Positions 4,278 to 15,550 of a stretch of DNA of 44,680 bases are shown here, one piece after another. Below the pieces are notes generated by a model. The model ran no database searches, had not been told where the DNA came from, and was given only the letters and a program-made list of their open reading frames with translations. Source of the DNA: Armatimonadota bacterium. Lineage in GTDB: Bacteria > Armatimonadota > UBA5829 > DTLH01. A program made the translations under genes and the position numbers. Numbering within the stretch: the first letter of the stretch is position 1; the number at the start of each line of letters is the position of its first letter. The DNA is taken from the NCBI GenBank assembly GCA_038207085.1, contig JBBRAE010000024.1, positions 1 to 44,680 of the forward strand. The letters run 5' to 3'.

Positions 4278-5360
4278 CTAAGTCCACTCACAACGTTGCT
4301 TCAGCCCATTGAGATGAGTTCGCGGAAGCTTGCCATCATGCTGAAGCCTTCCAACGACGATGCCGGGAGCAACGCCTACTTCCTTCGCGAACTGCCTTAC
4401 CCTGAGTTCACTTAGCACACTGCCCACTGCAAACGGTTCATACCTGGACTTCGGAATCAGCAGATCGGCCGCAAACAGATCAGCCTCGACCTCCGTGTCT
4501 CCGTGATCATCATTTGACTCAATGAACAGCCTGCTCTTGCCGTGCAGTAAAATATGCCCCGCCTCGTGAAAGAACGTAAACCAGAGGTGGTCGTTGGTCT
4601 TGTATCTCAGACTAAGTTGAATTATCGCCTTGTGCTGAGTAGGCCACCGAGTAGCACCACACACCCTTGTGCCGGGCAACTCCGGCACAAAAGCCACCGC
4701 CACCCCCGCCTCAGCAAACATCTGAACCAGCTTTGTCGTAAAATACTTCACCGGTTCGACGGTCAATGATCTGGCGTTCTTCAGCGCAGCCTTGAACGCT
4801 TTCTTATCATAGGTAAGGCACTCAATTGACTGGGCCACAATTTCACCTCGTCGAAGCCACGCCGCCACAGCACCAGGATTGCACTCGAAGGCCTTCGAGC
4901 GTCTGAAGGCAACATGCTCCCCACGCCAGATATCCTCCCAAGCGCCCGGAGTGGCAACACCAAAGTACCGAAGCACCTCATCCAGCTGCTCCACCTTGTC
5001 CTGAAACCGCCTGATCCACCCGAGGTCGCACATGGCCTTGATTGGAACCGTCTTCAGCCATTCAACATCATTTCGCAGCCTGGCTTGCTCCTCAAGCCTT
5101 GCCAGTGACTCGCGGTAATGCCGCTCACGATTCATCCAGAAAGATGCGGGTGTGCCAAGCACTTTCTCCAGCTGCAGCGCCGTTTCCGGCGTGATCGCAG
5201 CCTTTCCTTTGATGATCTCACTGATGGTCTTGGTCGGTCTGCCGGTGCGCTCAGCGAGCTCGACTTGTGACATGTCGAGGGCCTCAATGGTCTCAAGAAG
5301 CGTCTCTCCTGGAGGGGAGACATAATCCGGTATATATCTATTCTCGATTGTGTCAACCAT
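4278..5360 (-). CDS. higA: HigA-family antitoxin: XRE HTH fused to ImmA/IrrE-type metallopeptidase
   Basis: PPGETLLE..MSQVELAERTGRP..TISEIIKGKAAITPETALQLE HTH; WFTFFHEAGH (HExxH) and EVEADLFA. Confidence 0.88.
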   Translation of the reverse strand: MVDTIENRYIPDYVSPPGETLLETIEALDMSQVELAERTGRPTKTISEIIKGKAAITPETALQLEKVLGTPASFWMNRERHYRESLARLEEQARLRNDVEWLKTVPIKAMCDLGWIRRFQDKVEQLDEVLRYFGVATPGAWEDIWRGEHVAFRRSKAFECNPGAVAAWLRRGEIVAQSIECLTYDKKAFKAALKNARSLTVEPVKYFTTKLVQMFAEAGVAVAFVPELPGTRVCGATRWPTQHKAIIQLSLRYKTNDHLWFTFFHEAGHILLHGKSRLFIESNDDHGDTEVEADLFAADLLIPKSRYEPFAVGSVLSELRVRQFAKEVGVAPGIVVGRLQHDGKLPRTHLNGLKQRCEWT

Positions 5361-5691
5361 GTGTGTCCTCTATATCTACGATCTTGACTGCAGTCACTCC
5401 AGCCCAATCAAGCCCACCTTCGGGCCTGACGGGAACCGGATCGTTCGCGACTACAAAGAGCAACCTGTAGGGATGGTCAAGATCAATCGAAAGCTGCCCT
5501 GCGCGGTCCCCTTTCAGCTCGTGGCATCGAGCTGGTGGGAGTCTGGAGATATCCTCAAGGCTATCAGCAGCCCGAAGGTCGTCGAGACGCCGTCCAAGAA
5601 GCTCCGCTTGCTTGTCACCCAACTCGCGCTGACGCAGAACTGCACTGTTGCAAAACTTCTCCAGTTTACTTGTCCTGAATATTATATCCAT
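5353..5691 (-). CDS. higB: HigB-like (RelE-family) killer toxin
   Basis: MDIIFRTSKLEK, CHELKGDRAGQLSIDLDHPYRLLF, IVDIEDTH; overlaps antitoxin start; toxin-first order. Confidence 0.88.
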   Translation of the reverse strand: MDIIFRTSKLEKFCNSAVLRQRELGDKQAELLGRRLDDLRAADSLEDISRLPPARCHELKGDRAGQLSIDLDHPYRLLFVVANDPVPVRPEGGLDWAGVTAVKIVDIEDTHG

Positions 5692-5815: not shown

Positions 5816-6268
5816 TTACTGGCAGACCGCGCTGATCGCGCGTGCGAGCCCCTCAGGCGTCAACGATGAGACCGACTTTCCTCCCGTCCACACCTCAAGA
5901 TGCAGGTGGGGGTCGCGCAGTTTGCGGTCTACCCAGCCGATCACCTCGCCCGCACGCACCCGACTTCCTAGCGCGATGCACTCTCTTATATGAATGTGAG
6001 CGTGTACGGTCGTCGTGCCACACCCTGCGATGTAGAGGCAGGAGAATCGGCCGCCACGGTCGGCGATTCGACTGATTTGCCCATCGTGCATCGCACGCAC
6101 CGGCTCACCCGCCGGGACGAAGATGTCGAGCGCGTCGCCTACCCCCGGGCGACTGTACCCGAGCACTACGTTGTGCCCGGGCACGTCACCCCTTCGGTGG
6201 ACGCTTCTGCCGTGAAGCGTCCGGTTGTACCTGCGGCCAAGTATTCCCCCAGATATTGGGCTTTCCAT
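5816..6268 (-). CDS. M23-family peptidase, putative endolysin (start trimmed to ATG 6268)
   Basis: LDIFVPAGEPVRAMHDG, TTVHAHI, VRAGEVIGWV, PHLHLEV (HxH); starts 1 nt after the holin stop; no signal peptide. Confidence 0.8.
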   Translation of the reverse strand: MESPISGGILGRRYNRTLHGRSVHRRGDVPGHNVVLGYSRPGVGDALDIFVPAGEPVRAMHDGQISRIADRGGRFSCLYIAGCGTTTVHAHIHIRECIALGSRVRAGEVIGWVDRKLRDPHLHLEVWTGGKSVSSLTPEGLARAISAVCQ

Positions 6269-6269
6269 A

Positions 6270-6590
6270 CTATTTCCTCTTCCAGCTCTGGTAGACGAAC
6301 TCGACCAGCAGGTTGGCAACGCTTTGGGGGACGGCAAAGCCGAACTCACGCTCCGACAGCCGCACGAGGTAGCCGACCGCCTCGACTCGCCGCTCACCGG
6401 GGGACATTTCGCCCAGGCGCGCGGCGTAGTCGATCGCGTCCCCCACTCTTTCCCGCCCGATTCGTGAAAGCCAACGCCTTGCCCACTTCGGCAGCCGCTC
6501 GCGGCTCTGCAGATAACTCAGCACAAACCCCGCGACGCCGATTGCGCACGCGAGCCAGTCGCCGTGCGACACGTTTCCTAGTTCTATCAA
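6270..6590 (-). CDS. Phage holin, LL-H-like (TTG start 6590)
   Basis: One N-terminal TM segment, then AIDYA..GERRVEA..LLVEFV pattern like LL-H holins; SD GGAGGT; directly upstream of the M23 gene. Confidence 0.65.
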   Translation of the reverse strand: MIELGNVSHGDWLACAIGVAGFVLSYLQSRERLPKWARRWLSRIGRERVGDAIDYAARLGEMSPGERRVEAVGYLVRLSEREFGFAVPQSVANLLVEFVYQSWKRK

Positions 6591-6591
6591 T

Positions 6592-6819
6592 TTATCCACC
6601 TCCAAATATGTGGGCGACAAACGCCCCGATCGCCGCTGTTGTGATGAACCCCGCAAGCCACTGCATGCTGTGCTGTCCGCGCTCAAGCACGCATATCCGC
6701 TGGCAGTGCTCGACGATCCCTGAGGGCACGTGCTTGCGGATCACTCCGATCTCCTCAAGGATCGTCTCAAGCTTGCTCTCGATCACCGCCAGGCGCTCCC
6801 CGACATCGATCTCTCTCAT
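6592..6819 (-). CDS. Small coiled-coil protein with C-terminal TM (XhlA-like lysis-cassette protein)
   Basis: ERLAVIESKLE..RICVLER then hydrophobic WLAGFITTAAIGAFVAHIF; position before the holin. Confidence 0.6.
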   Translation of the reverse strand: MREIDVGERLAVIESKLETILEEIGVIRKHVPSGIVEHCQRICVLERGQHSMQWLAGFITTAAIGAFVAHIFGGG

Positions 6820-6830
6820 AAACTCCTCCG

Positions 6831-7136
6831 TTACGCCGAGATGATCGCCGTTTTAGCCGTCGCAATCCCTTGAAACCGCTCCGTCCACACCTTGCGCACG
6901 TGGTAGGTGCGCCCATCGCGGACTATGGTGTTGTCGAGCGCGATCGGGGTGCTCTGGAGCGTGATCAGAAACAGCGCGGGCTTGGCGACGGCCATTATCT
7001 CGGTATCGTCGAGGTAGTTTCGCATGGTCCCTGAGTCCAGCATACGAAAGAACCCCTTGGCGGCGGTCGTCCCGTTCAAGAGAAACGACTCGCCGTGCTT
7101 GTTGATCTTCTTTTCGATGCGCGATAGCACACTCAT
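6831..7136 (-). CDS. Putative head-closure (stopper; gpFII/SPP1 gp16-like) protein
   Basis: ~100 aa beta-rich; NTIVRDGRTYHVRKV C-terminal pattern; follows adaptor. Confidence 0.6.
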   Translation of the reverse strand: MSVLSRIEKKINKHGESFLLNGTTAAKGFFRMLDSGTMRNYLDDTEIMAVAKPALFLITLQSTPIALDNTIVRDGRTYHVRKVWTERFQGIATAKTAIISA

Positions 7137-7139
7137 CGC

Positions 7140-7571
7140 CTAGATCACCCCCTCTGAGTTGAACGTAAGCTGGCAGTCGCGGGTGGTGCTCTGGATAGCG
7201 CTTTCGCGCATCATCGGCTGCACGCTTTTCTGGAACGCCGCGAGCCGGGTCGTCCCCTGCAGAACAAGCGACGGCCCCCGCTCTTTCATCTCGCCGACAG
7301 TCACGCCGCCGACCGAAAAATCTTCGAGGTTCCCGAACTCCCGCGCCAGCTGCTGCAGGAACTCGCCCGAGATCAGCTCCAGCACCCCAAGCTTGAGCGC
7401 CGCCTGCAGTCCGACATTTCCCGTGTCGGTGAGATAAGCGTCGACGATCGAGAACTCGACCGCGGTCTGCATCTCAGAGATGAGCGAGTCGATCATCGTG
7501 TCGTAACCCGTCTCAGAGGTAGGAATCATAGCCTTGCGCTTCACATCAGCGCGGGTGATTGTGATTGCCAT
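7140..7571 (-). CDS. Putative head-tail adaptor/connector (HK97 gp6/SPP1 gp15-like)
   Basis: ITRADVKR..YDTMIDSLI..AVE and ALKLGVLELI helical pattern; immediately downstream of MCP. Confidence 0.65.
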   Translation of the reverse strand: MAITITRADVKRKAMIPTSETGYDTMIDSLISEMQTAVEFSIVDAYLTDTGNVGLQAALKLGVLELISGEFLQQLAREFGNLEDFSVGGVTVGEMKERGPSLVLQGTTRLAAFQKSVQPMMRESAIQSTTRDCQLTFNSEGVI

Positions 7572-7593
7572 AGTTGGACTCCTTTCGTGGTGT

Positions 7594-7650
7594 TAGTGGC
7601 TAGTCGCTGGTTTGGGACTGGCGACTAGCCACTGACGACTAGCGACTAGC
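7594..7650. repeat. Inverted heptamer (CTAG-core) tandem tracts
   Basis: TAGTGGC TAGTCGC ... GCGACTA GCCACTG ACGACTA GCGACTA; arms match 33606-33618 and 34002-34014. Confidence 0.7.
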
Positions 7651-7726
7651 CCGCTTTATTCGTGAAGCGAATAAAGCTCTCGCTAGCAAAGCATTATTCA
7701 CGCTCCTCGTGAATAATGCAGGCTAT
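7646..7726. mobile_element. MITE family A, copy 2 (inverted relative to copy 1)
   Basis: 7646-7722 is the exact reverse complement of 1417-1493 (77 nt). Confidence 0.85.
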
Positions 7727-7732
7727 CCCCCA

Positions 7733-8647
7733 TTAGCCTACTTTGCTGCCAAACGCCGTCTGCCAGAGTCCGTAGCCTGCGTTGTAGCGGGCTCGGACGC
7801 CGTAGACGTACTGGTCGCGCATAAAGCCGGTCTCGCTTGTGCCCTCAAGGGCTGCGAAGTCGAGCGGCACGCGGCTCTGGAAGATCATCGGACGGACGAT
7901 CCACTTGCTTGCGAGGAGAAACCAGTCGTTTGAGTCCGTGAGATACGGGCTTACGACCAGGTCAAGCCGTCCTTTGAGCGGGTTCGCCGAGAGCTTCTGC
8001 GAGCCTGCGCCTGCGGCGACGAGCTCGGGGTAGTAGGTGGAGTTCAGCAGTTCGAGCGCCGTCCACTGGAGGTCCGGCGGGACGACGAGCACGTCCGGGA
8101 CGATGCCCAGCACCTTGCCGCGGTCGTCCTTGAACTTCATCATCGCGGTGATCGCCGTCTCAAGCGAGGTCGAGGAGAGCGCATCGGTCCCCCTGTTGCT
8201 CTGCGTGCCGGAGTCGCCCTCGGCGTGGTCGGTATCGAAGAAATACTGACCGTCGTGGCAGTTCGATGTGAACCCACCGGCGAGCAGCGAGAATACGAGC
8301 TCGTCGATATGTCTTTTCGACTCGCGAGCGAGCCCCTGAACTCTGAGCTTGATCTGGCCGTAGAGGTCGTCTTCGATCGCCGCGCGCTCCACTGCGACCG
8401 AGGCCTCCCAGGTCTTGTTCTTGATCGCATAATTGTGCTCAAGGAGCCCTGCGGGGAGCCTTTCGTCCTTGAACTCGCGCATCTTGGGCACGCTTCCAAG
8501 CCATGCGTAGGTTTCGGTGTCCTGCTCGCTCGGGACGACGGTCGAGATCTTCTCCCAATCGCCGACCGAAGCGTCATAAGCCTCGAAAAAGACCGTCTTC
8601 AGCCCGGCCTCAAGCAGTTTCGGAACGTCTGATTTTACAAGTGACAT
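7733..8647 (-). CDS. Major capsid protein, Mu gpT family (start trimmed to ATG 8647)
   Basis: ETYAWLGSVPKMRE, YAIKNKTWEASVAVERAAIEDD, DGQYFFDTDH, LVVPPDL, YGVRARYNAGYGLWQ; SD AAGGAG. Confidence 0.92.
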   Translation of the reverse strand: MSLVKSDVPKLLEAGLKTVFFEAYDASVGDWEKISTVVPSEQDTETYAWLGSVPKMREFKDERLPAGLLEHNYAIKNKTWEASVAVERAAIEDDLYGQIKLRVQGLARESKRHIDELVFSLLAGGFTSNCHDGQYFFDTDHAEGDSGTQSNRGTDALSSTSLETAITAMMKFKDDRGKVLGIVPDVLVVPPDLQWTALELLNSTYYPELVAAGAGSQKLSANPLKGRLDLVVSPYLTDSNDWFLLASKWIVRPMIFQSRVPLDFAALEGTSETGFMRDQYVYGVRARYNAGYGLWQTAFGSKVG

Positions 8648-8687
8648 AATAGATTTTCTCCTTTGGATTGTGTAGAGTAGCGGGCGA

Positions 8688-8826
8688 TGTTGGCCTGGAT
8701 CTGTGATCCGGGCCTTCTTGGCAAACAAGGGATCTGTGATCCCGGTCTTTCGATGACATCCGATCAACCGGCATCACAGATGCCTATTTGGCCCATGCGT
8801 CCCGGATTGCAAATCCGGACGAACGA
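8688..8826. repeat. Cluster of REP-like palindromes between decoration and capsid genes
   Basis: GGATCTGTGATCC twice, GGCATCACAGATGCC, and CCGGATTGCAAATCCGG (similar to GGGATTTGCAATCCC at ~31583). Confidence 0.55.
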
Positions 8827-8838
8827 AACCCCCATCCC

Positions 8839-9255
8839 CTAGCTCGCGTAGCGGTCGATTTTCACCCTGACGGTATTCGCATCGATCGACTCAACGCAGA
8901 TACCGGCCTTGAGGTTGTTGCTTGTAGCCGCGTCTGTGATGGTCTGGTTGTCGACGACCTTGAACTCGACTCCGACGTCGGTCTGCGCCCCGTTTCCGCC
9001 TCCGTCGACGAATACGAAGGTGCCTCGGTTCTCAACTCTGATCTCTTTGTCGCCCGCCGAGCCTGTCGAGTTGTCGACGGTCTCATAGGCGACCCCCGCG
9101 AACGTCTCACTCGCCGCATCGGTCGCGTTGGTCGCGAACCCCGCGGCGTTGATGTTCACGAGCGCCCCCTTGGGGATCTTGACGGCGGCCATCTTGTAAC
9201 TGATAAGCTCACCGTCCTTGCGTTTGGATTCTCTTGCGTTTGTGGTTGCTGTCAT
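8839..9255 (-). CDS. Capsid decoration/cement protein (start trimmed to ATG 9255)
   Basis: AAVKIPKGALVNINAAGFA, FAGVA.E.VDNS.G.AGD, TDVG..DNQT pattern of genes adjacent to Mu-type MCPs; SD GAAAGGAG. Confidence 0.78.
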   Translation of the reverse strand: MTATTNARESKRKDGELISYKMAAVKIPKGALVNINAAGFATNATDAASETFAGVAYETVDNSTGSAGDKEIRVENRGTFVFVDGGGNGAQTDVGVEFKVVDNQTITDAATSNNLKAGICVESIDANTVRVKIDRYAS

Positions 9256-9277
9256 GGTATGCTCCTTTCGAGTGTAT

Positions 9278-9331
9278 AGCTGACAGCTTTCAGCAGTCAG
9301 CTTTTGGAGTGCGGCGCGCAAGCGCCACTTT
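9278..9331. repeat. Heptamer remnant plus REP-like palindrome
   Basis: AGCTGAC AGCTTTC AGCAGTC AGC, then TTGGAGTGCGGCGCGCAAGCGCCACTTT. Confidence 0.5.
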
Positions 9332-9493
9332 CTCATTAGTGACAATCCAGTTGATCGCCAATTATCTGCCATTCTTCATAGCCCGAGCAATCGCCTGCCG
9401 TCAAACTCAAAACTCGTGACTCTCTCAAGTTCCCCTCCAAACGTGGCATAATCTAGAATGGCAACCACAGAGTTGCGCGAGGAGGTGAGCAGT

Positions 9494-10438
9494 TTGAAAC
9501 GATCGTCCGATACTGCTTCGATAAGAGACCGGAAGCTCGACGTTGAGCCGGTGCTCGAACAGCTTTCGCAGATAGTGCAAGTCGACCTGCTCCAGCTGGC
9601 CCAGGACACACTCTCGTCGGCCATCGGAGTGCCCATTCTCTTTGTCGCCCCCGACGGCTCACCGATCACCAAGTCCGACCAAATGGACTCGTTTTGCTGG
9701 CATGTCGCCAAAAAGACCTGCGCACAGGAACCGTGCCGCGACTGCGACAGACTGCAGAACGCGGCGAAGTTTCACTGCCCGATGGATATCCGCGACGTAA
9801 TCCTGCCGATCGAGGCGGGTGATATCGTCGTCGGCTACCTGATCGCCTCACAGGCCGCTTCAGAACGGCTCGATGACGCGACCCCCGCGCTTTCGATGCT
9901 CGCCGCGATGGTCTCCAGGCTCGCAACTGCCGAGCGGGAGAACATCTTCGGTCGCATCCGGGACCCGCTGACAGGCCTTGCAAGCCGGGCGCACTTCTGG
10001 GAGTGCCTCACCCGAGAGCTTGAGGTCGCCGACACCTACCATTATCCCGTTTCAGTGCTCGTGTTCGACCTAGACGACTTCAAGAGCGTCAACAGCGTCT
10101 ACGGGCACGACATGGGCGACCGGGTGCTTAGAACCGTCGGCGAGATACTGCGAAAAGAGATTCGCACAACCGACATAGCCGCGCGTTACAGCGGGGACTC
10201 GTTTCTGGTGATGCTCAGATGCGCCGACCCAATCGGGGCCGAAGCCGTCGCATGGCGGATACTGAACAAGCTCAACGACATAAAACTGACGGCCCGCGGG
10301 CAGCTTGTGCCTGTCGCGGCAAGCGTCGGTATGGTCACATACCCCGCATGCGCCGCTCGCGAGCCTGATGCCATCTTCAAAGAAGCCCTCACCTCGCTCA
10401 CCCAAACACGGGGATGCGAGCTGCGAGTGGCAAGCTAA
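9494..10438 (+). CDS. PocR-sensor + degenerate GGDEF-domain protein (ORF open from 9458; TTG 9494 has SD GGAGGT)
   Basis: PocR-like Cys pattern (FC..C..HCP..LPI..G.VVGYL); DPLTGL, DLDDFKSVN..GH..GD; I-site RTTD; A-site SGDSF. Confidence 0.85.
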   Translation: MKRSSDTASIRDRKLDVEPVLEQLSQIVQVDLLQLAQDTLSSAIGVPILFVAPDGSPITKSDQMDSFCWHVAKKTCAQEPCRDCDRLQNAAKFHCPMDIRDVILPIEAGDIVVGYLIASQAASERLDDATPALSMLAAMVSRLATAERENIFGRIRDPLTGLASRAHFWECLTRELEVADTYHYPVSVLVFDLDDFKSVNSVYGHDMGDRVLRTVGEILRKEIRTTDIAARYSGDSFLVMLRCADPIGAEAVAWRILNKLNDIKLTARGQLVPVAASVGMVTYPACAAREPDAIFKEALTSLTQTRGCELRVAS

Positions 10439-10505
10439 CGACTTCGAACCGGGGGCTCAGGGCCGGGGACCAACATCCCCCTCCCAGAGCCTCCGATCCA
10501 GCACA

Positions 10506-10844
10506 CTACTCCACAAGCGTCACTGACACCTTGAAGTCTCCGGACGACCCGCCGTTGTTCTTCACGGAAAGACGGAACGAAGTCCCAGCGCTAAGCTCGT
10601 AATCGGTCTCGCTGCGCAGCCCGTCCGCGGTCGCTTCACCGAGACTGACGGCCAGGATTTCGGTCCCCAGCGAACCATCCGCCCCGCGCCTCTGGATCGT
10701 CACGTCGCATGCCTGCTCCGCCTCGACCCTGAGGATCAGCTTGCCGACCCACCAGTAACCATCAAGCCAGCTGGAGCATGCCTTGCCACCCGCGGCCAAG
10801 TCGTTCACCACAAGAACGTTTACCAACTCCTGATAACCTCTCAT
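10506..10844 (-). CDS. Hypothetical beta-rich protein within the head module
   Basis: Strong SD AGGAGGTG; co-oriented with head genes; no recognised family. Confidence 0.7.
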   Translation of the reverse strand: MRGYQELVNVLVVNDLAAGGKACSSWLDGYWWVGKLILRVEAEQACDVTIQRRGADGSLGTEILAVSLGEATADGLRSETDYELSAGTSFRLSVKNNGGSSGDFKVSVTLVE

Positions 10845-10870
10845 AGAATCACCTCCTTTCGGTTTGGGGT

Positions 10871-10900
10871 TTCAGATTTGAGATTGCAGATTGCAGATTG
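10871..10900. repeat. Heptamer tandem repeat
   Basis: TTCAGAT TTGAGAT TGCAGAT TGCAGAT TG. Confidence 0.6.
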
Positions 10901-10923
10901 TGTGCAGGCATTGACACCTGCTT

Positions 10924-11292
10924 TTAGCGCCCTTTCTGCCGCGCGACAGCCTCCGGGCTCACCCCGAGCTTCGCGTAGAACTCACGTTCCTCGTCGGTCA
11001 TCTGGGATAGCTCCTTCGCCCCTTCCGCAAGCTCTGAGAACTCGACGACTTTGGGCTGCGACAGAAGGAACTCCGCGAACACCCCCGCGACGGGCTTCTC
11101 GCTTCCGTCGGAGAAGTTCACGACATGCGCCTCCCCGGCGGAAAGGAGCGCCCGCGCAAGGTCCTCGGACGCCGGAACGAGCTTGCCGGCGCGCTTGAGC
11201 GAGTCGATCTGCCCATCCACCTCGCGGGCCCGAAGCTGCCGCTCAAGCTCATCTATCCTCTTTGAAAACTCAACTGATTTTGCCTCTGACAT
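10924..11292 (-). CDS. Putative nested in-frame scaffolding protein
   Basis: Internal GAAGGAGAAGAAGAT-ATG at the protease/coiled-coil boundary. Confidence 0.55.
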   Translation of the reverse strand: MSEAKSVEFSKRIDELERQLRAREVDGQIDSLKRAGKLVPASEDLARALLSAGEAHVVNFSDGSEKPVAGVFAEFLLSQPKVVEFSELAEGAKELSQMTDEEREFYAKLGVSPEAVARQKGR

Positions 11293-11922
11293 ATCTTCTT
11301 CTCCTTCATCTATATCGAACTGAAACTCAACTACGTCTGCCGAAAACACCACCGCTCCCGCCACCCTTGGGGTGCGCACCAGGCTCACTTCGGTAAGCTC
11401 GGACTTGTCGCGTTTGATCGCCGCCGACAGCTTTTTCGCCCCGCATGCGTCCACCAGCGCCCAGGCCGGTGCGGTAAAAGCGAGCCGCCCGAAGAGGTCG
11501 CGGCCTTTGCGCCAGATGCGGGTGACTATACCAAGCTCAAGCGGCGTGTCGGTGTGCTCGATCTTGATCGGCACCGGGCGCTGCCGCTCGACCATACGAT
11601 CAAGGTCCTCTTCGGTCACCTCGATGCCGCGATCGGGATATTCCCCTGCCGTAAACAGCCGCGCCTCCCGCTCGACGACCTCCTCAGTGAGCTTCACACC
11701 GAACTTCCCGGCAGCCTCCGCGATCCGGGACTTGATCGTCTCAAGCTCGGTCACGCTGTAGAACATTGCGTTTCGAGGGATGTGCACCCTCGCCCAAGCC
11801 GCCCGGACCCGCTCGGGGGTATCGATCGGATACCTGTTGTTCACGGGGTCAGCAAACTCGACCTCGCCATACTTTCTCACCCCATCCCTGGGGTCAATGT
11901 CATCTCTTTTTTGAATGTTCAA
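10924..11922 (-). CDS. Prohead protease-scaffold (Mu gpI-like) with N-terminal DUF6582-like domain (TTG start 11922)
   Basis: FADP..RYPIDT.ERVRAAW N-domain; LF.AGEY..VTEEDLDRMV..VPIKIEH..G..KKLS..VSLVRTP protease core; coiled-coil C-terminus; SD AAAGGA. Confidence 0.8.
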   Translation of the reverse strand: MNIQKRDDIDPRDGVRKYGEVEFADPVNNRYPIDTPERVRAAWARVHIPRNAMFYSVTELETIKSRIAEAAGKFGVKLTEEVVEREARLFTAGEYPDRGIEVTEEDLDRMVERQRPVPIKIEHTDTPLELGIVTRIWRKGRDLFGRLAFTAPAWALVDACGAKKLSAAIKRDKSELTEVSLVRTPRVAGAVVFSADVVEFQFDIDEGEEDMSEAKSVEFSKRIDELERQLRAREVDGQIDSLKRAGKLVPASEDLARALLSAGEAHVVNFSDGSEKPVAGVFAEFLLSQPKVVEFSELAEGAKELSQMTDEEREFYAKLGVSPEAVARQKGR

Positions 11923-11953
11923 TGGTGTTCCTTTCGTAAGGGTAGTTTGAGTA

Positions 11954-12090
11954 GAGCGCACGTTTCGAGAGCCTCAACGTGATTGGTTTTGGATTGATCT
12001 ATATGTGAGGGATTGGTGGTAGCGGTACAATCCCTCATATCTCCACCCAAGCCAGACCATATCACCCTGAGGCTCTCGAAGGGTGCGCTC
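11954..12090. repeat. REP doublet/MITE family B, copy 1
   Basis: ~29-bp imperfect terminal inverted repeats GAGCGCAC..TTCGAGAGCCTCA..GTGA; homologous copy 36179-36306; half-site near 1125-1151. Confidence 0.8.
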
Positions 12091-12124
12091 CACTAATCAA
12101 AGGACGTACTACAGACTCCGGAAG

Positions 12125-13309
12125 CTAATCCCCGCACGGAATCTCCAAATACTCCCTGATCCACCCCTCGTCGGGCGCAACGACACCGCCTGAGACAAGC
12201 TTCGTCACCACGTCGGCCAGAAGTGTCAGGTCGCGCTCCCTAAGAGTCCCAAGCGAGAACGTGGGGTAGCTCTCGGTCTTGAAGTTATAATCGACGAGCC
12301 GACGAATCAACTGCTCGCCCATCACCGACTCCTCCAAATCACGCTTGATCTTCTCAAGCGTCATGCGAAGCACGTCCATGTGCACCTTGGCAAGCGCGAA
12401 CGAGCCAAACCGCATCCCCTCGTCGGTCGTCAGCGTCTGCCCGAGGATGGACTTTGCGATCTGCCGGTCGTGATACTCGATCGCCTGGAGGTAGCCAAGT
12501 TCGCCGCCCCTCTGGGCCTCCATAAGCTCGATCTTGATGTCCTGCGGAAGCACAATCGCCGTCTCCTGCTGGATCCGGTCGAGCACCTTCAAAAGGTCGT
12601 CCTGCTGCGATTTCGGCGTGCCCCGGGTATAGCTCCCAAGCACCGTCGGCGCGCCATACTTCTCCAAATAGATATTGTAGAACTTGAGAATCACGTCCTT
12701 GCTCCACCAGTGCCGGTACGCCGAACGCAGGTCGCTTGACCCGTAGGGCGACTCATAGCGCGGCATATAGGTGTAGAGCAAAAACTTCTCCGCCGGGAGC
12801 TTCTTTTCGCGCCCAGGCGACTGATAAAGCCCGGTCATATTCAAAAACTCATCGGTCTCGAACGTAACCGAGGTCGGGTCCTTGCTCTTGATCGAGTCAA
12901 GCCCGATCATCCCCTCAAACGCCCCCCGCTCGATCACCTTGTAGTTGATCTCAGAGATCGAATACCCCTTGGCAACGGCGTCGAGGGTATTGTAGAGCAC
13001 GTCGATCATCGCCCCGCGCATATCGGCCAGGCAGAACTCTACGAACTTCGCGATCCACTGGTCCTCCTTGTGGCTAGACGCCGGAACGACCCTCCACCCC
13101 CGCGAGAGAATCGAGAGTTTCTTGATACTCAGGCACGCCCGCACCTGCGAGTCCCCCTGCATCCGGTCATACACTTCGTAGCCGCGCGAGGCGACCAGGT
13201 CATCGGGATTGGCCGGCCCGATCCGCCCAAACGCCCCCGCGAGCCGGTCGGCGACGGCAGTCTCGACCAGCCTTGGCCGACGAATGATTGATTTCAGCTT
13301 TGTAAGCAT
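12125..13309 (-). CDS. Phage portal protein, DUF935/Mu gp29 family (start trimmed to ATG 13309)
   Basis: YDRM..DSQV, LDAVAKGYSISEI, PYGSSDLR, LEKYGAP, IAKSILGQTLTT, GSFALAKVH; SD AAGGAG. Confidence 0.92.
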   Translation of the reverse strand: MLTKLKSIIRRPRLVETAVADRLAGAFGRIGPANPDDLVASRGYEVYDRMQGDSQVRACLSIKKLSILSRGWRVVPASSHKEDQWIAKFVEFCLADMRGAMIDVLYNTLDAVAKGYSISEINYKVIERGAFEGMIGLDSIKSKDPTSVTFETDEFLNMTGLYQSPGREKKLPAEKFLLYTYMPRYESPYGSSDLRSAYRHWWSKDVILKFYNIYLEKYGAPTVLGSYTRGTPKSQQDDLLKVLDRIQQETAIVLPQDIKIELMEAQRGGELGYLQAIEYHDRQIAKSILGQTLTTDEGMRFGSFALAKVHMDVLRMTLEKIKRDLEESVMGEQLIRRLVDYNFKTESYPTFSLGTLRERDLTLLADVVTKLVSGGVVAPDEGWIREYLEIPCGD

Positions 13310-13346
13310 AGATACTCCTTTCGTAGTTGTGAATATCTGATAGGCA

Positions 13347-13446
13347 TGTTGGTCGGGGGAATCCGTCCCTCGACCCCGTTCCGCTGATTCTGTCCGCCCG
13401 AACATGGACCGGCTAACGCCGTAGGGGCGGACCAGTGTGTCCGCCC
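13347..13446. repeat. REP family C copy plus GTAG-type REP
   Basis: 13347-13398 nearly identical to 39064-39115; GTAGGGGCGGACCAGTGTGTCCGCCC at 13421-13446. Confidence 0.75.
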
Positions 13447-13583
13447 TTCTCTGGGCGTGCGGTAAATACGCCACCAGCCGATAAATCCCCCGTCGCCGGG
13501 GCACGATCCTTCACTATCATTCAAGATGACAGTTTGGCAAGCCCAATCACCCGCGATATCCGCCCGTTCCGCGCCTCCGCGAT

Positions 13584-14897
13584 TCAGGAAACGCTCTGAC
13601 TTGCAACCCGCAATTTACTCCCCGCCAAGAACCTAGCAGGTCCCCCCGCGCTCTTCCCCTGCCACTCAGCAAGCGCGAGCGCGACGACCAGGTCGTCGGT
13701 ATAGCCGCTCCGGGCGTTCATCCGCACGTTCCCCGAGGTCGTAAGCTCATACTCGAAGTACTGAAGCTCGCGGACGAGCTGTTCGTCGTCTGGAATCGCG
13801 GTCTCACCGGCTGAGAGCCGCACGACGAGGTTGTCGATGATCTCGCGCTTACTCGCATTGGTGAAGGCCATCCCCTCGATCGCCATCCCGGCTCCCTTCT
13901 CCCAAACGCAGCGCCGCAGCTGCTCAAGCAGCGGGTCGCCGATCGAGGTCTGATCGGTAAGCACCTCGCTTACCCCGCAGCCGATCAGAATCGACGCCAC
14001 CCGCTCCACCTGCGCCTCCCAGGAAAGCTTGTGGAAGCGGTCCATCGCAACCACCCTGTGAGGCGTCTCCGAGGCATCGAGCACGATCACCGTCGTATAG
14101 TCCGAGTAGCGCGCCCAATCGACCCCCGCGACAAGCCAAGGCTCATCCGACACATAAGTTTCCCGCCCAAGCCCGACCGCACGCTCGATCGTCTCCCAGG
14201 GGAATACCGAGGCCTGATCGTCCAGAAACTCAGCCTCATACTCCACCGAAAACTGCCGGGGAGTGATCACCCCGCGCTGGAACTCGATATACTCCCCGCT
14301 CACAAACGGGTTGGTCCGGGAAGGAAACCTATGGGCAGAATAGCGCCCGTCTCCTCCATTGCCACGAGCAAACGCGCGGTAGAAGTGGTTCTTGCCCCAG
14401 GGCGTCGAGATCATCACGAGCTGCCCATTTCGGTCTGCGAGCATCGGGCTGATCACCTCCTCGACCACCGCGTCCCGAACGTACGCCGCCTCATCGACGA
14501 TCACCCGGTCGGCTGAGTGGCCCCTCAGGTTTCGCCCGTCGTCGTCTGCGGTGCGCGCCGTGATCTCGCTTCGATTGATCCTAAGCCTGGGGAAAGGCGT
14601 CCGGGTCACTTTGGACACCCTGCGAGTGACCGCGCGACCCATCACCAGGCGCTCCACCGTGTCAAAGATCAGGCGGCTCTGGTCGCAGGTCGGAGCGACG
14701 ATCATCTGGGCCGAGCCCGGGCAGGCTAGTGCAAAGGTCGCCGCGTCCACCGCCGCCGCCTCGGTCTTACCCCAGCGACGGCCGCACGCCGCGACCTTCA
14801 CACGCGCATCGTCGACCATCCACTGCTTCTGAGTAGGATGAGGCCGCCAGCCAAAGAACAGGCGGGCCATCCCAAGCCTCGCATCAGCGCTAACCAT
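13584..14897 (-). CDS. terL: Terminase large subunit
   Basis: Walker A GRRWGKT, Walker B VIVDEAAY, coupling motif ISTP, nuclease GVDWA..DYT and DDLVVALALA; all intact. Confidence 0.95.
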   Translation of the reverse strand: MVSADARLGMARLFFGWRPHPTQKQWMVDDARVKVAACGRRWGKTEAAAVDAATFALACPGSAQMIVAPTCDQSRLIFDTVERLVMGRAVTRRVSKVTRTPFPRLRINRSEITARTADDDGRNLRGHSADRVIVDEAAYVRDAVVEEVISPMLADRNGQLVMISTPWGKNHFYRAFARGNGGDGRYSAHRFPSRTNPFVSGEYIEFQRGVITPRQFSVEYEAEFLDDQASVFPWETIERAVGLGRETYVSDEPWLVAGVDWARYSDYTTVIVLDASETPHRVVAMDRFHKLSWEAQVERVASILIGCGVSEVLTDQTSIGDPLLEQLRRCVWEKGAGMAIEGMAFTNASKREIIDNLVVRLSAGETAIPDDEQLVRELQYFEYELTTSGNVRMNARSGYTDDLVVALALAEWQGKSAGGPARFLAGSKLRVASQSVS

Positions 14898-15246
14898 CGG
14901 CGCCCTCCTCGACCGCCCGGGCGATCAGCGCCTCTATCGCATCCTCAGCCCCCTCGACTCTTTCCTGAAAGGCCCCGCTTGCCTTCAGCACATCGAGCGC
15001 CGACTTTTCCGCACCTCCGTCCAGCATCTGATGGAGCCTGCGCGCCGCCTCAAGTGAGGCCCCAGCCGCGATTCTCGAAGCCGCCGCCCGTATCTGGCGT
15101 TCCTCCCCGGCAAGCGCCGCGGCAAACTGCGGCTTCTTCCTCCAGCCGTCTATCGCCTCCTGCGTTACACCGATCTCCCCCGCGACCTCCTCGTCGGTCA
15201 TCCGAAACATCAGGCGCACCGCCCGTTTCTGTTTAGCACTGAGCAT
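14890..15246 (-). CDS. Terminase small subunit (N-terminal HTH; start trimmed to ATG 15246)
   Basis: LSAKQKRA..TDEEVAGEIGVT..IDGWRKKPQF; overlaps terL start; SD GGAGG. Confidence 0.75.
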   Translation of the reverse strand: MLSAKQKRAVRLMFRMTDEEVAGEIGVTQEAIDGWRKKPQFAAALAGEERQIRAAASRIAAGASLEAARRLHQMLDGGAEKSALDVLKASGAFQERVEGAEDAIEALIARAVEEGADG

Positions 15247-15550
15247 CTGTCCCTCCAAAGTTTGTTCTCCATAATTATAAGACAACAACTCGGGCAAAAA
15301 CTGGAATCGCGAGCGTGAAATGATAGGTAAATGTTGTTCATAAATTGCGAACAGGCGGGCGAGCTTGGGCATTGGAGGATTACCCTCAATTAGTTGTCAA
15401 CTCATCGTGAACATTACGTGATCTGTTCACCACTTTGCCCAAATGAGCCCCTGGAAGTGGGACCTGGACGGGGTCAATGTCACAATTGAAGGTTTTCTTC
15501 ACAGGGGTTATTTGTTCAAAATGGGGGTAATGTAAGAAATGCTGGCTTAT

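Follow-up and report, generated by a model that had tools for sequence, protein, structure and literature searches.

Domesticated phage parts are known as whole particles in gene transfer agents (GTAs), as tails in tailocins and as empty shells in encapsulins. Here we describe a set of twelve phage-type genes on contig JBBRAE010000024.1 of an Armatimonadota bacterium (assembly GCA_038207085.1; 3.35 Mb in 83 contigs, 100% marker completeness), the whole contig of 44,680 nucleotides (C24) being the window referred to below; G, C, L and f label genomes, contigs, loci and families. This module encodes a head-only system for DNA packaging and lysis that is real, domesticated and widespread in Armatimonadota and apparently undescribed, and whose function we infer. 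Our preferred reading, to which we assign a probability of about 45%, is that it forms a host-owned, vertically inherited head-only particle system that would mediate GTA-like gene transfer by tail piracy.

The closest described systems are the GTAs (RcGTA of Rhodobacter capsulatus, BaGTA, BhGTA/VSH-1), which, like the module, consist of vertically inherited phage head, packaging and lysis genes, are under purifying selection, occupy several loci, are host-regulated and contain no replication or integration genes; the modelled head-closure protein (stopper) of the module also matches a GTA virion chain (6tba_3A; Z 8.2). RcGTA and BhGTA, however, encode their own tail according to the available text of PMC9662315, whereas no tail was found for the module, and the small terminase of RcGTA (gp1) has no helix-turn-helix (HTH) in the part of PMC6854486 that describes it, whereas that of the module (TerS) has an N-terminal HTH-type match. 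The module, known here from genes alone, further differs in its Mu-gpT-type head and in a predicted LexA box directly before the terminase genes. Phage-inducible chromosomal islands that form capsids (cf-PICIs) and their episomal versions (cf-PISPs), known in Vibrio from the available text of PMC13230959, resemble the module in having a capsid, protease, portal, adaptor, connector and terminases of their own, in a set that ends at adaptor and stopper and would in principle yield heads lacking tails, and relatives of the module in family f29 are cf-PICI-like islands that carry integrase, primase and defence cargo but no tail. cf-PICIs, in contrast, form a unit of 10–18 kb with integrase or recombinase, replication and regulation genes, which the chromosomally fixed module lacks. 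The criteria by which cf-PICIs are searched for exclude lytic genes, as far as the accessible text of bioRxiv 2025.02.11.637232 states them, whereas the module has XhlA-like, holin-like and lysin genes, and in the available text of PMC13230959 the head is of the PF05065 type, unlike the Mu-type head of the module, which also has no HNH packaging nuclease. The first-pass annotation of this DNA had proposed that the module fits neither class, and this holds: absence of a tail and an HTH-bearing TerS separate it from characterized GTAs, and lysis genes together with absence of integrase and replication genes separate it from cf-PICIs.

Three other comparisons are informative. PBSX of Bacillus subtilis shares with the module an XhlA-like gene, a lysin and a jelly-roll protein of the XepA/YomS kind; it is induced by DNA damage, packages host DNA and carries a contractile killing tail, whereas no tail was found for the module. 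Encapsulins are host-owned HK97-type shells without portal, terminase, neck or lysis genes, all of which are conserved in the module. Mu-like tailed prophages and the siphophages of Armatimonadota (L098, L100, G006:C68) have portal, protease, decoration and capsid genes of the same families, but they are patchily distributed and, unlike the module, encode MuF, proteins for tail completion, tube, tape measure and hub, and other terminases. A literature search of titles and abstract openings, with subscription journals and bioRxiv supplements outside its scope, found no description of the module or of the tail-less viruses reported below.

The module and its immediate surroundings contain the following features:

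15247..15400, minus strand: upstream control region with a conserved -10-like element, a weak LexA-like site and a right half-site
14890..15246, minus strand: small terminase (TerS), 118 residues, N-terminal HTH kept (phrog_7344, E 4e-9; phrog_2538; weak HTH Pfam match)
13584..14897, minus strand: large terminase (TerL), 437 residues, ATPase and nuclease motifs intact (phrog_2, E 7e-42)
12125..13309, minus strand: Mu-type portal, 394 residues (PF06074, E 6e-77, model positions 1–333 of 336; phrog_113)
10924..11922, minus strand: maturation protease-scaffold, about 332 residues, N-terminal DUF6582 domain (PF20223, PF10123, phrog_976)
10506..10844, minus strand: "orphan" single jelly-roll protein (AlphaFold pLDDT 87.7; VIA structure matches)
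9458..10438, plus strand: host PocR+GGDEF gene, 326 residues (PF00990, PF10114)
8839..9255, minus strand: decoration or cement protein, 138 residues (phrog_1731, E 7e-25; weak PF09956)
7733..8647, minus strand: Mu-gpT-like major capsid protein, 304 residues (PF10124, E 9e-76)
7140..7571, minus strand: predicted head-tail adaptor, 143 residues (homology to the L100 adaptor, ESM Atlas lead, position after the capsid gene)
6831..7136, minus strand: head closure (stopper), 101 residues (AlphaFold pLDDT 93.6; stopper fold matches)
6592..6819, minus strand: XhlA-like membrane protein, 75 residues (phrog_1193 "hemolysin", E 1e-3; C-terminal hydrophobic segment)
6270..6590, minus strand: LL-H-like holin candidate, 106 residues (ESM Atlas PF09682 lead; N-terminal hydrophobic segment)
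5816..6268, minus strand: M23 peptidase in the lysin slot (PF01551)
4278..5691, minus strand: HigBA toxin-antitoxin pair, outside the conserved module (PF05015, HTH_3/M78)

All twelve open reading frames (ORFs) are intact, and the ORFs, the Pfam and PHROG matches and the stopper fold of the closure protein bear out the gene set first proposed, although neither Pfam nor PHROG matches adaptor, closure, holin or orphan. The genes had also been called co-oriented, which is true of the twelve phage genes on the minus strand but not of the block as a whole, the plus-strand PocR+GGDEF gene inside it having been missed. Sequences at the starts agree with the earlier report of Shine-Dalgarno (SD) sequences ahead of most genes; for the protease, its SD sequence and the start of a homologue favour TTG 11922 over GTG 11961 as the most likely start. 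The catalytic motifs were likewise correctly described as preserved, the protease His and Ser being kept in 33–34 of 34 host copies and the Walker A/B motifs and nuclease aspartates of TerL in 35–36 of 36. No replication, integration or tRNA genes were found in the window, none of the 20 largest families of direct repeats in the window provides an att-like pair around the block, in line with the first statement on att repeats, and no structural gene has a second copy elsewhere in the source genome. MuF, transposase, repressor and integrase are absent from the module, again as first reported, which sets it apart from a Mu-like prophage, and there is no neutral decay.

We find the module across its class, mostly in single copy, in the search of relatives that the first-pass annotation had proposed as a check. 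The capsid gene is present in 49/61 sampled relatives, comprising 47/53 genomes of the class, a single module from a different class and a single tailed prophage; second full copies were seen in G006, as part of a tailed prophage, and in G048, on a mobile element. TerL matches occur in 49/61 genomes, some of them weak prophage matches, and TerS homologues in 33 loci. A stopper profile made from 70 sequences matches 140 of the 401 genomes of the phylum that are at least 90% complete, mostly once per genome, with f1 at 5/5, f2 at 20/21, f5 at 9/10, f13 at 45/106, f18 at 10/15 and f29 at 22/28, and has zero matches in many other families of the phylum. Gene order is kept in 39 chromosomal loci, part of them on short contigs, with variable accessory genes between capsid and neck genes, including LamG and GDSL domains. 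Each of ten closed or near-closed f13 and f29 genomes has a chromosomal TerL of the module type away from the capsid genes, and in several of these the separation is 0.3 to about 1.0 Mb; with genes this far apart, the module cannot package its own whole gene set as a unit. An additional stand-alone copy of the module TerL was seen at L138 (G007:C139), and REP-like repeats with many genome-wide copies lie between TerL and portal in the window (13340–13560).

The module tracks its hosts. In a tree of seven concatenated module genes from 33 genomes (7 of the 40 RpoB loci, with fewer than five module genes, were excluded; all trees were made with FastTree and Shimodaira-Hasegawa-like support), 16/30 splits are shared with RpoB, compared with a random mean of 0.2 and a maximum of 3 in 1000, the patristic distances correlate with rho 0.82, and families f1, f3, f4 and f5 are each monophyletic. 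Both the congruence with the host tree and the dN/dS below 1 that the first-pass annotation anticipated are therefore found: the five closest pairs have dN/dS values of 0.080, 0.107, 0.080, 0.057 and 0.053, and four more distant ones range over 0.08–0.20, giving nine pairs at 0.05–0.20, while a tenth is saturated. Synonymous divergence (dS) is near the rpoB value in three of the five closest pairs. In the pair G010/G013, dS is lower than for rpoB in most module genes and higher in closure and holin, which suggests recombination. Because the trees follow the host, dN/dS is low, catalytic residues are near-invariant and the genes are dispersed over up to 1 Mb, we consider it very probable that the module is domesticated and functional.

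No tail was found with it. The stopper is the final structural gene, without terminator, tube or tape measure downstream. Elsewhere in the source genome, searches for five tail families from Pfam and two from PHROG, for a tail-hub profile and for 30 neck, tail, decoration and MuF proteins taken from related phages matched nothing except the module's own adaptor (E 0.05), while control genomes were positive for the library tail families. The five Pfam families were not found in four closed genomes either; PF04865, PF18906, PF04984, PF13550 and phrog_8462 were each found in 0/5 genomes. The hub profile matches 1/61 genomes, in a prophage. Among 38 inspected matches to the stopper profile, tail-like genes follow only one weak match, in a different prophage, with tails sought by our own profiles, the 30 phage proteins and reading by eye rather than by a full library scan. 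The tape measure family PF10145 occurs in 16/61 genomes (14/47 module carriers) and the tail-completion family phrog_5 in 12/36, mostly on the same contigs; these loci were rejected as a partner tail operon, the one case inspected (G045) being a complete myophage that itself encodes terminase, portal and capsid. Similarly spaced pairs of tail markers are seen repeatedly across several genomes in the class (L124–L129 and the tape-measure loci) and may represent one myophage prophage family, a possible tail donor.

The neck is where a borrowed tail would attach. The modelled closure protein has a stopper fold, with the Pam3 neck as best match (Z 10.1, rmsd 3.0, 79 aligned residues) and further matches to stoppers in BFVD, and the adaptor is homologous to that of the tailed phage L100 (E 1e-4); an ESM Atlas cluster (0.95) with Phage_connect_1 on 30% of its members is a lead only. 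The stopper is the most variable head or neck protein, with a mean identity of 38% compared with 67% for the capsid, and this variability fits tail capture, since a surface that meets foreign tails is expected to vary.

The region upstream of the terminase genes suggests control by the host. A predicted host LexA box is present in many lineages: the exact palindrome GAAC-N4-GTTC, which we take to match the Gram-positive LexA consensus, lies at most 250 bp upstream of TerS or TerL in 20/43 loci (shuffled sequences, mean 0.13, maximum 2), compared with 0/40 upstream of the protease and 0/53 upstream of the decoration gene. In the source genome, the box matrix selects sites ahead of recA and the lexA operon and also of a dinB-like gene, gyrA and gyrB, where recA and lexA were identified by other means and the remaining names come from reading the sequences; the reading of the motif as a LexA box relies on the sites at recA, lexA and the dinB-like gene and on that consensus. 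The window itself has a -10-like element at about 15281–15269, also seen in 16/43 loci, a weak LexA-like site at 15269–15254 and a right half-site at about 15362–15347. Several observations accompany these. The source genome has two recA and two lexA genes (C4:87548, C5:128457, C37:17995, C30:7616). An element of about 75 bp upstream of TerS (15340–15257) recurs at C19:48557, C43:161, C54:451 and C4:55231; tried as a pointer to phage structural genes, the other four sites led to none, and at C19 the element is followed by a small ORF and a 144-residue ORF with a GPKTxEGK motif, presumably the one found in proteins resembling terminase small subunits. In G050 (L130, L041), a transposase-like gene lies between decoration and capsid, and a perfect LexA box is still present.

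Mobile relatives of the module fall into tailed phages, tail-less elements and islands. Tailed phages share portal, protease, decoration and capsid at 34–63% identity (capsid 50–63%); homologues in tailed prophages had been named by the first-pass annotation as a ground for refutation, and they do exist for head genes, but the terminases and most of the necks differ, and these phages additionally carry tube, tape measure and hub. In elements with adaptor and stopper of the module families, by contrast, we found no recognizable tail. G411 (IMG/VR; L371 and L381) is a sequence of 30,719 bp with direct terminal repeats and a CheckV completeness of 100%, encoding helicases, a nuclease, terminase, head, adaptor, stopper and lysis-like proteins; 38 further ORFs scanned gave zero matches to PHROG tail families, and one of its accessory proteins is homologous to a chromosomal accessory (E 1e-17). 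G048:C55 and record L192 close into a circle of 26,247 bp (L065/L140/L192), the portal of which repeats at 26,511 bp in another assembly; it encodes three tandem stopper paralogues and no recognized integrase, and its tail-family matches are limited to short segments common to a head-fibre-like gene and the adaptor. L195 shares this late operon, which runs up to a convergent helicase. Together, G411, the 26-kb circle and L195 appear to be complete viruses: they have genes for replication, head, neck and lysis but no recognizable integrase, and putative Armatimonadota hosts; their adaptors have long C-terminal extensions (251–313 residues vs. 143 in the chromosomal protein).

The islands G146 (L237/L271/L272), G162 (L240/L273/L274) and G243 (L251/L269) combine a serine recombinase, Prim-Pol and restriction-modification (R-M) with the head set, those of f29 span at least 24–34 kb, and G247:C3 (L249) repeats with a 15,312-bp period and is read as a circle. 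FastTree phylogenies place islands and circles of f29 as the sister group of the chromosomal copies in that family; the tail-less viruses, with a different terminase, branch outside. cf-PICI-like islands and circles (including G162:C2, L264/L239/L265) carry a Mu-type head, serine or tyrosine recombinases and primase or replication genes, and their defence cargo includes R-M, GmrSD, ThiF-containing genes and RHS. A 45.5-kb prophage of Fimbriimonas ginsengisoli (PMC4072686) was rejected as the same element, the table given for it listing a PF03420 protease and many more late genes.

Among the remaining genes, the orphan model matches PBSX XepA (VIA Z 11.6, rmsd 2.7, 105 aligned residues), SPbeta YomS (Z 10.1) and the HFTV1 turret (Z 9.2), with unrelated jelly-rolls scoring slightly lower, and is probably a vertex spike or lysis accessory of this kind. 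According to the available text of PMC6834076, XepA and YomS belong to prophage lysis cassettes, form pentamers and may attach to the vertices of capsids. The orphan gene has its own family alignment and differs in position among genomes; a relationship to a virus accessory ORF was rejected on comparison, with no similarity. The PocR+GGDEF gene is antisense between protease and decoration in five family loci, the window included, has a degenerate active site (SGDSF) with RxxD present, and is probably a passenger. The lysin slot holds M23, Amidase_3 or M15 peptidases depending on family. In the M23 protein HxH is kept, but six of six family copies have G instead of H four residues before the zinc Asp, the first zinc-ligand His thus being off its canonical place and activity only predicted. 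The holin assignment is a lead only (ESM Atlas 0.93; PF09682 on 25% of cluster members). Flanks differ between genomes; here, as the first-pass annotation noted, a toxin-antitoxin pair follows, HigBA with an HTH+M78 antitoxin directly after the lysin, and some relatives have toxin-antitoxin or addiction-type genes within the module or next to it (L058, L059, L257).

In phages, protease-scaffold, capsid, portal and decoration proteins build the prohead, TerS and TerL fill it, adaptor and stopper seal it, and holin, XhlA-like protein and lysin release the particles. In the module, DNA damage would lift LexA repression and start this series, and we judge from the gene content that release of DNA-filled tail-less heads on SOS is fairly likely. 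Since the module is not a self-contained replicon, the cargo would be mainly chromosomal DNA. Having no tail, the module would need one from outside for delivery: the sealed heads would be non-infectious until the stopper captured a compatible tail from a phage lysate or a co-induced prophage. cf-PICI heads capture tails in this way, with adaptor and connector setting tail specificity, in the accessible part of bioRxiv 2025.02.11.637232. That tail capture and gene transfer are the selected role is, judged on the genes, somewhat short of an even bet. Common ancestry with the phylum's tail-less viruses and satellites is probable for the module, which for this reason may never have had a tail. 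Tentatively, and with considerable doubt, this can be extended to a tail-less HK97-type lineage comprising viruses of 26–31 kb that replicate and lyse by themselves, capsid-forming satellites and the domesticated copy found across the phylum, the latter a never-tailed, SOS-triggered GTA for host DNA in which tails pirated from unrelated phages would set the recipient range.

Several findings weigh against gene transfer by a host-owned, SOS-controlled module. In 17 of the 43 loci no box turns up even if one mismatch is tolerated, and LexA control in the window is uncertain because its best site is weak and degenerate (8.4 bits, training sites having at least 14.8). Between two and five well-supported splits per gene disagree with RpoB, and the capsid of the tailed provirus L098 (6533–7429), 63% identical, falls inside the host clade with weak support, making capsid exchange between module and phages possible. 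About ten carriers have a stop, split or deletion in some gene (G004, G010, G014, G015, G017, G035, G039, G047, G049, G050); these include TerL of the closed genome G050, internally deleted to 161 codons, and some of the lesions may be assembly errors. Stoppers evolve fast in general, which makes their variability slight support for tail capture, the small ORFs of the tail-less viruses could encode an unrecognized stub tail, and with the HTH kept in TerS packaging may be sequence-specific.

That retained HTH, predicted host SOS control, and the infection of the same phylum by tailed phages with related capsids would also suit an anti-phage device, the main rival reading. SOS induces prophages too, and in such a device the heads would soak up phage tails, or the terminase would pack phage DNA into dead-end heads, with the lysis genes killing the cell early. 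Tail markers of prophages are present in 14/47 carriers, and cf-PICIs reduce helper titre more than 100-fold in the portion of bioRxiv 2025.02.11.637232 available. We nevertheless think this explanation unlikely, though worth keeping in view, because a full head with decoration and variable lectin- and esterase-like accessories (LamG, GDSL) suits a particle that reaches cell surfaces, and the varying flanks form no conserved defence neighbourhood. It is more doubtful still that the particle works independently of tails, through a stub of stacked stoppers, surface spikes, or as protected DNA for uptake, biofilm or repair; the related viruses would in that case be naturally tail-less or stub-tailed HK97-fold phages. 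As read from their genes, complete related viruses replicate and lyse alone with no recognizable tail, one has three stopper paralogues and their adaptors are extended; GTA particles of B. henselae were first described as tail-less or short-tailed in the available text of PMC9662315. Yet the viruses have in common no unknown protein of the size of an ejection protein, and the chromosomal adaptor has no extension. We know of no precedent for tail-less passage through a diderm envelope, which also counts against such a particle.

An ordinary GTA whose divergent tail operon lies elsewhere and escaped our searches would agree with the dispersal of the module over loci and with the poor coverage by PHROG of tail proteins of the related phages, our searches having covered selected tail families, profiles and phage proteins; it is made very improbable by the negative results for the five Pfam tail families in the source and four closed genomes, by a hub profile confined to one prophage in 61 genomes and by complete mobile relatives that are likewise tail-less. 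The lesions in about ten carriers, the patchiness within the phylum (e.g., 45/106 in f13, zero in many families) and the mobile islands sister to f29 chromosomal copies could indicate a decaying remnant, or maintenance by repeated re-acquisition from mobile elements. This is the explanation we find hardest to credit: trees and dN/dS (about 0.05–0.1) largely refute it, and near-invariant catalytic residues, congruence with the host, single copy number and predicted host LexA control all speak against it.

What is missing from the known range of domesticated phage parts is a tamed head that packages DNA but has no tail. If the module does transfer genes with borrowed tails, as we prefer to read it, GTA biology would be joined to tail piracy and a route for gene flow across species would follow; if it instead acts as a decoy, it would represent a new type of defence. 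The apparently complete tail-less viruses related to it, in turn, would challenge the rule that phages with portal and terminase encode their own tails.

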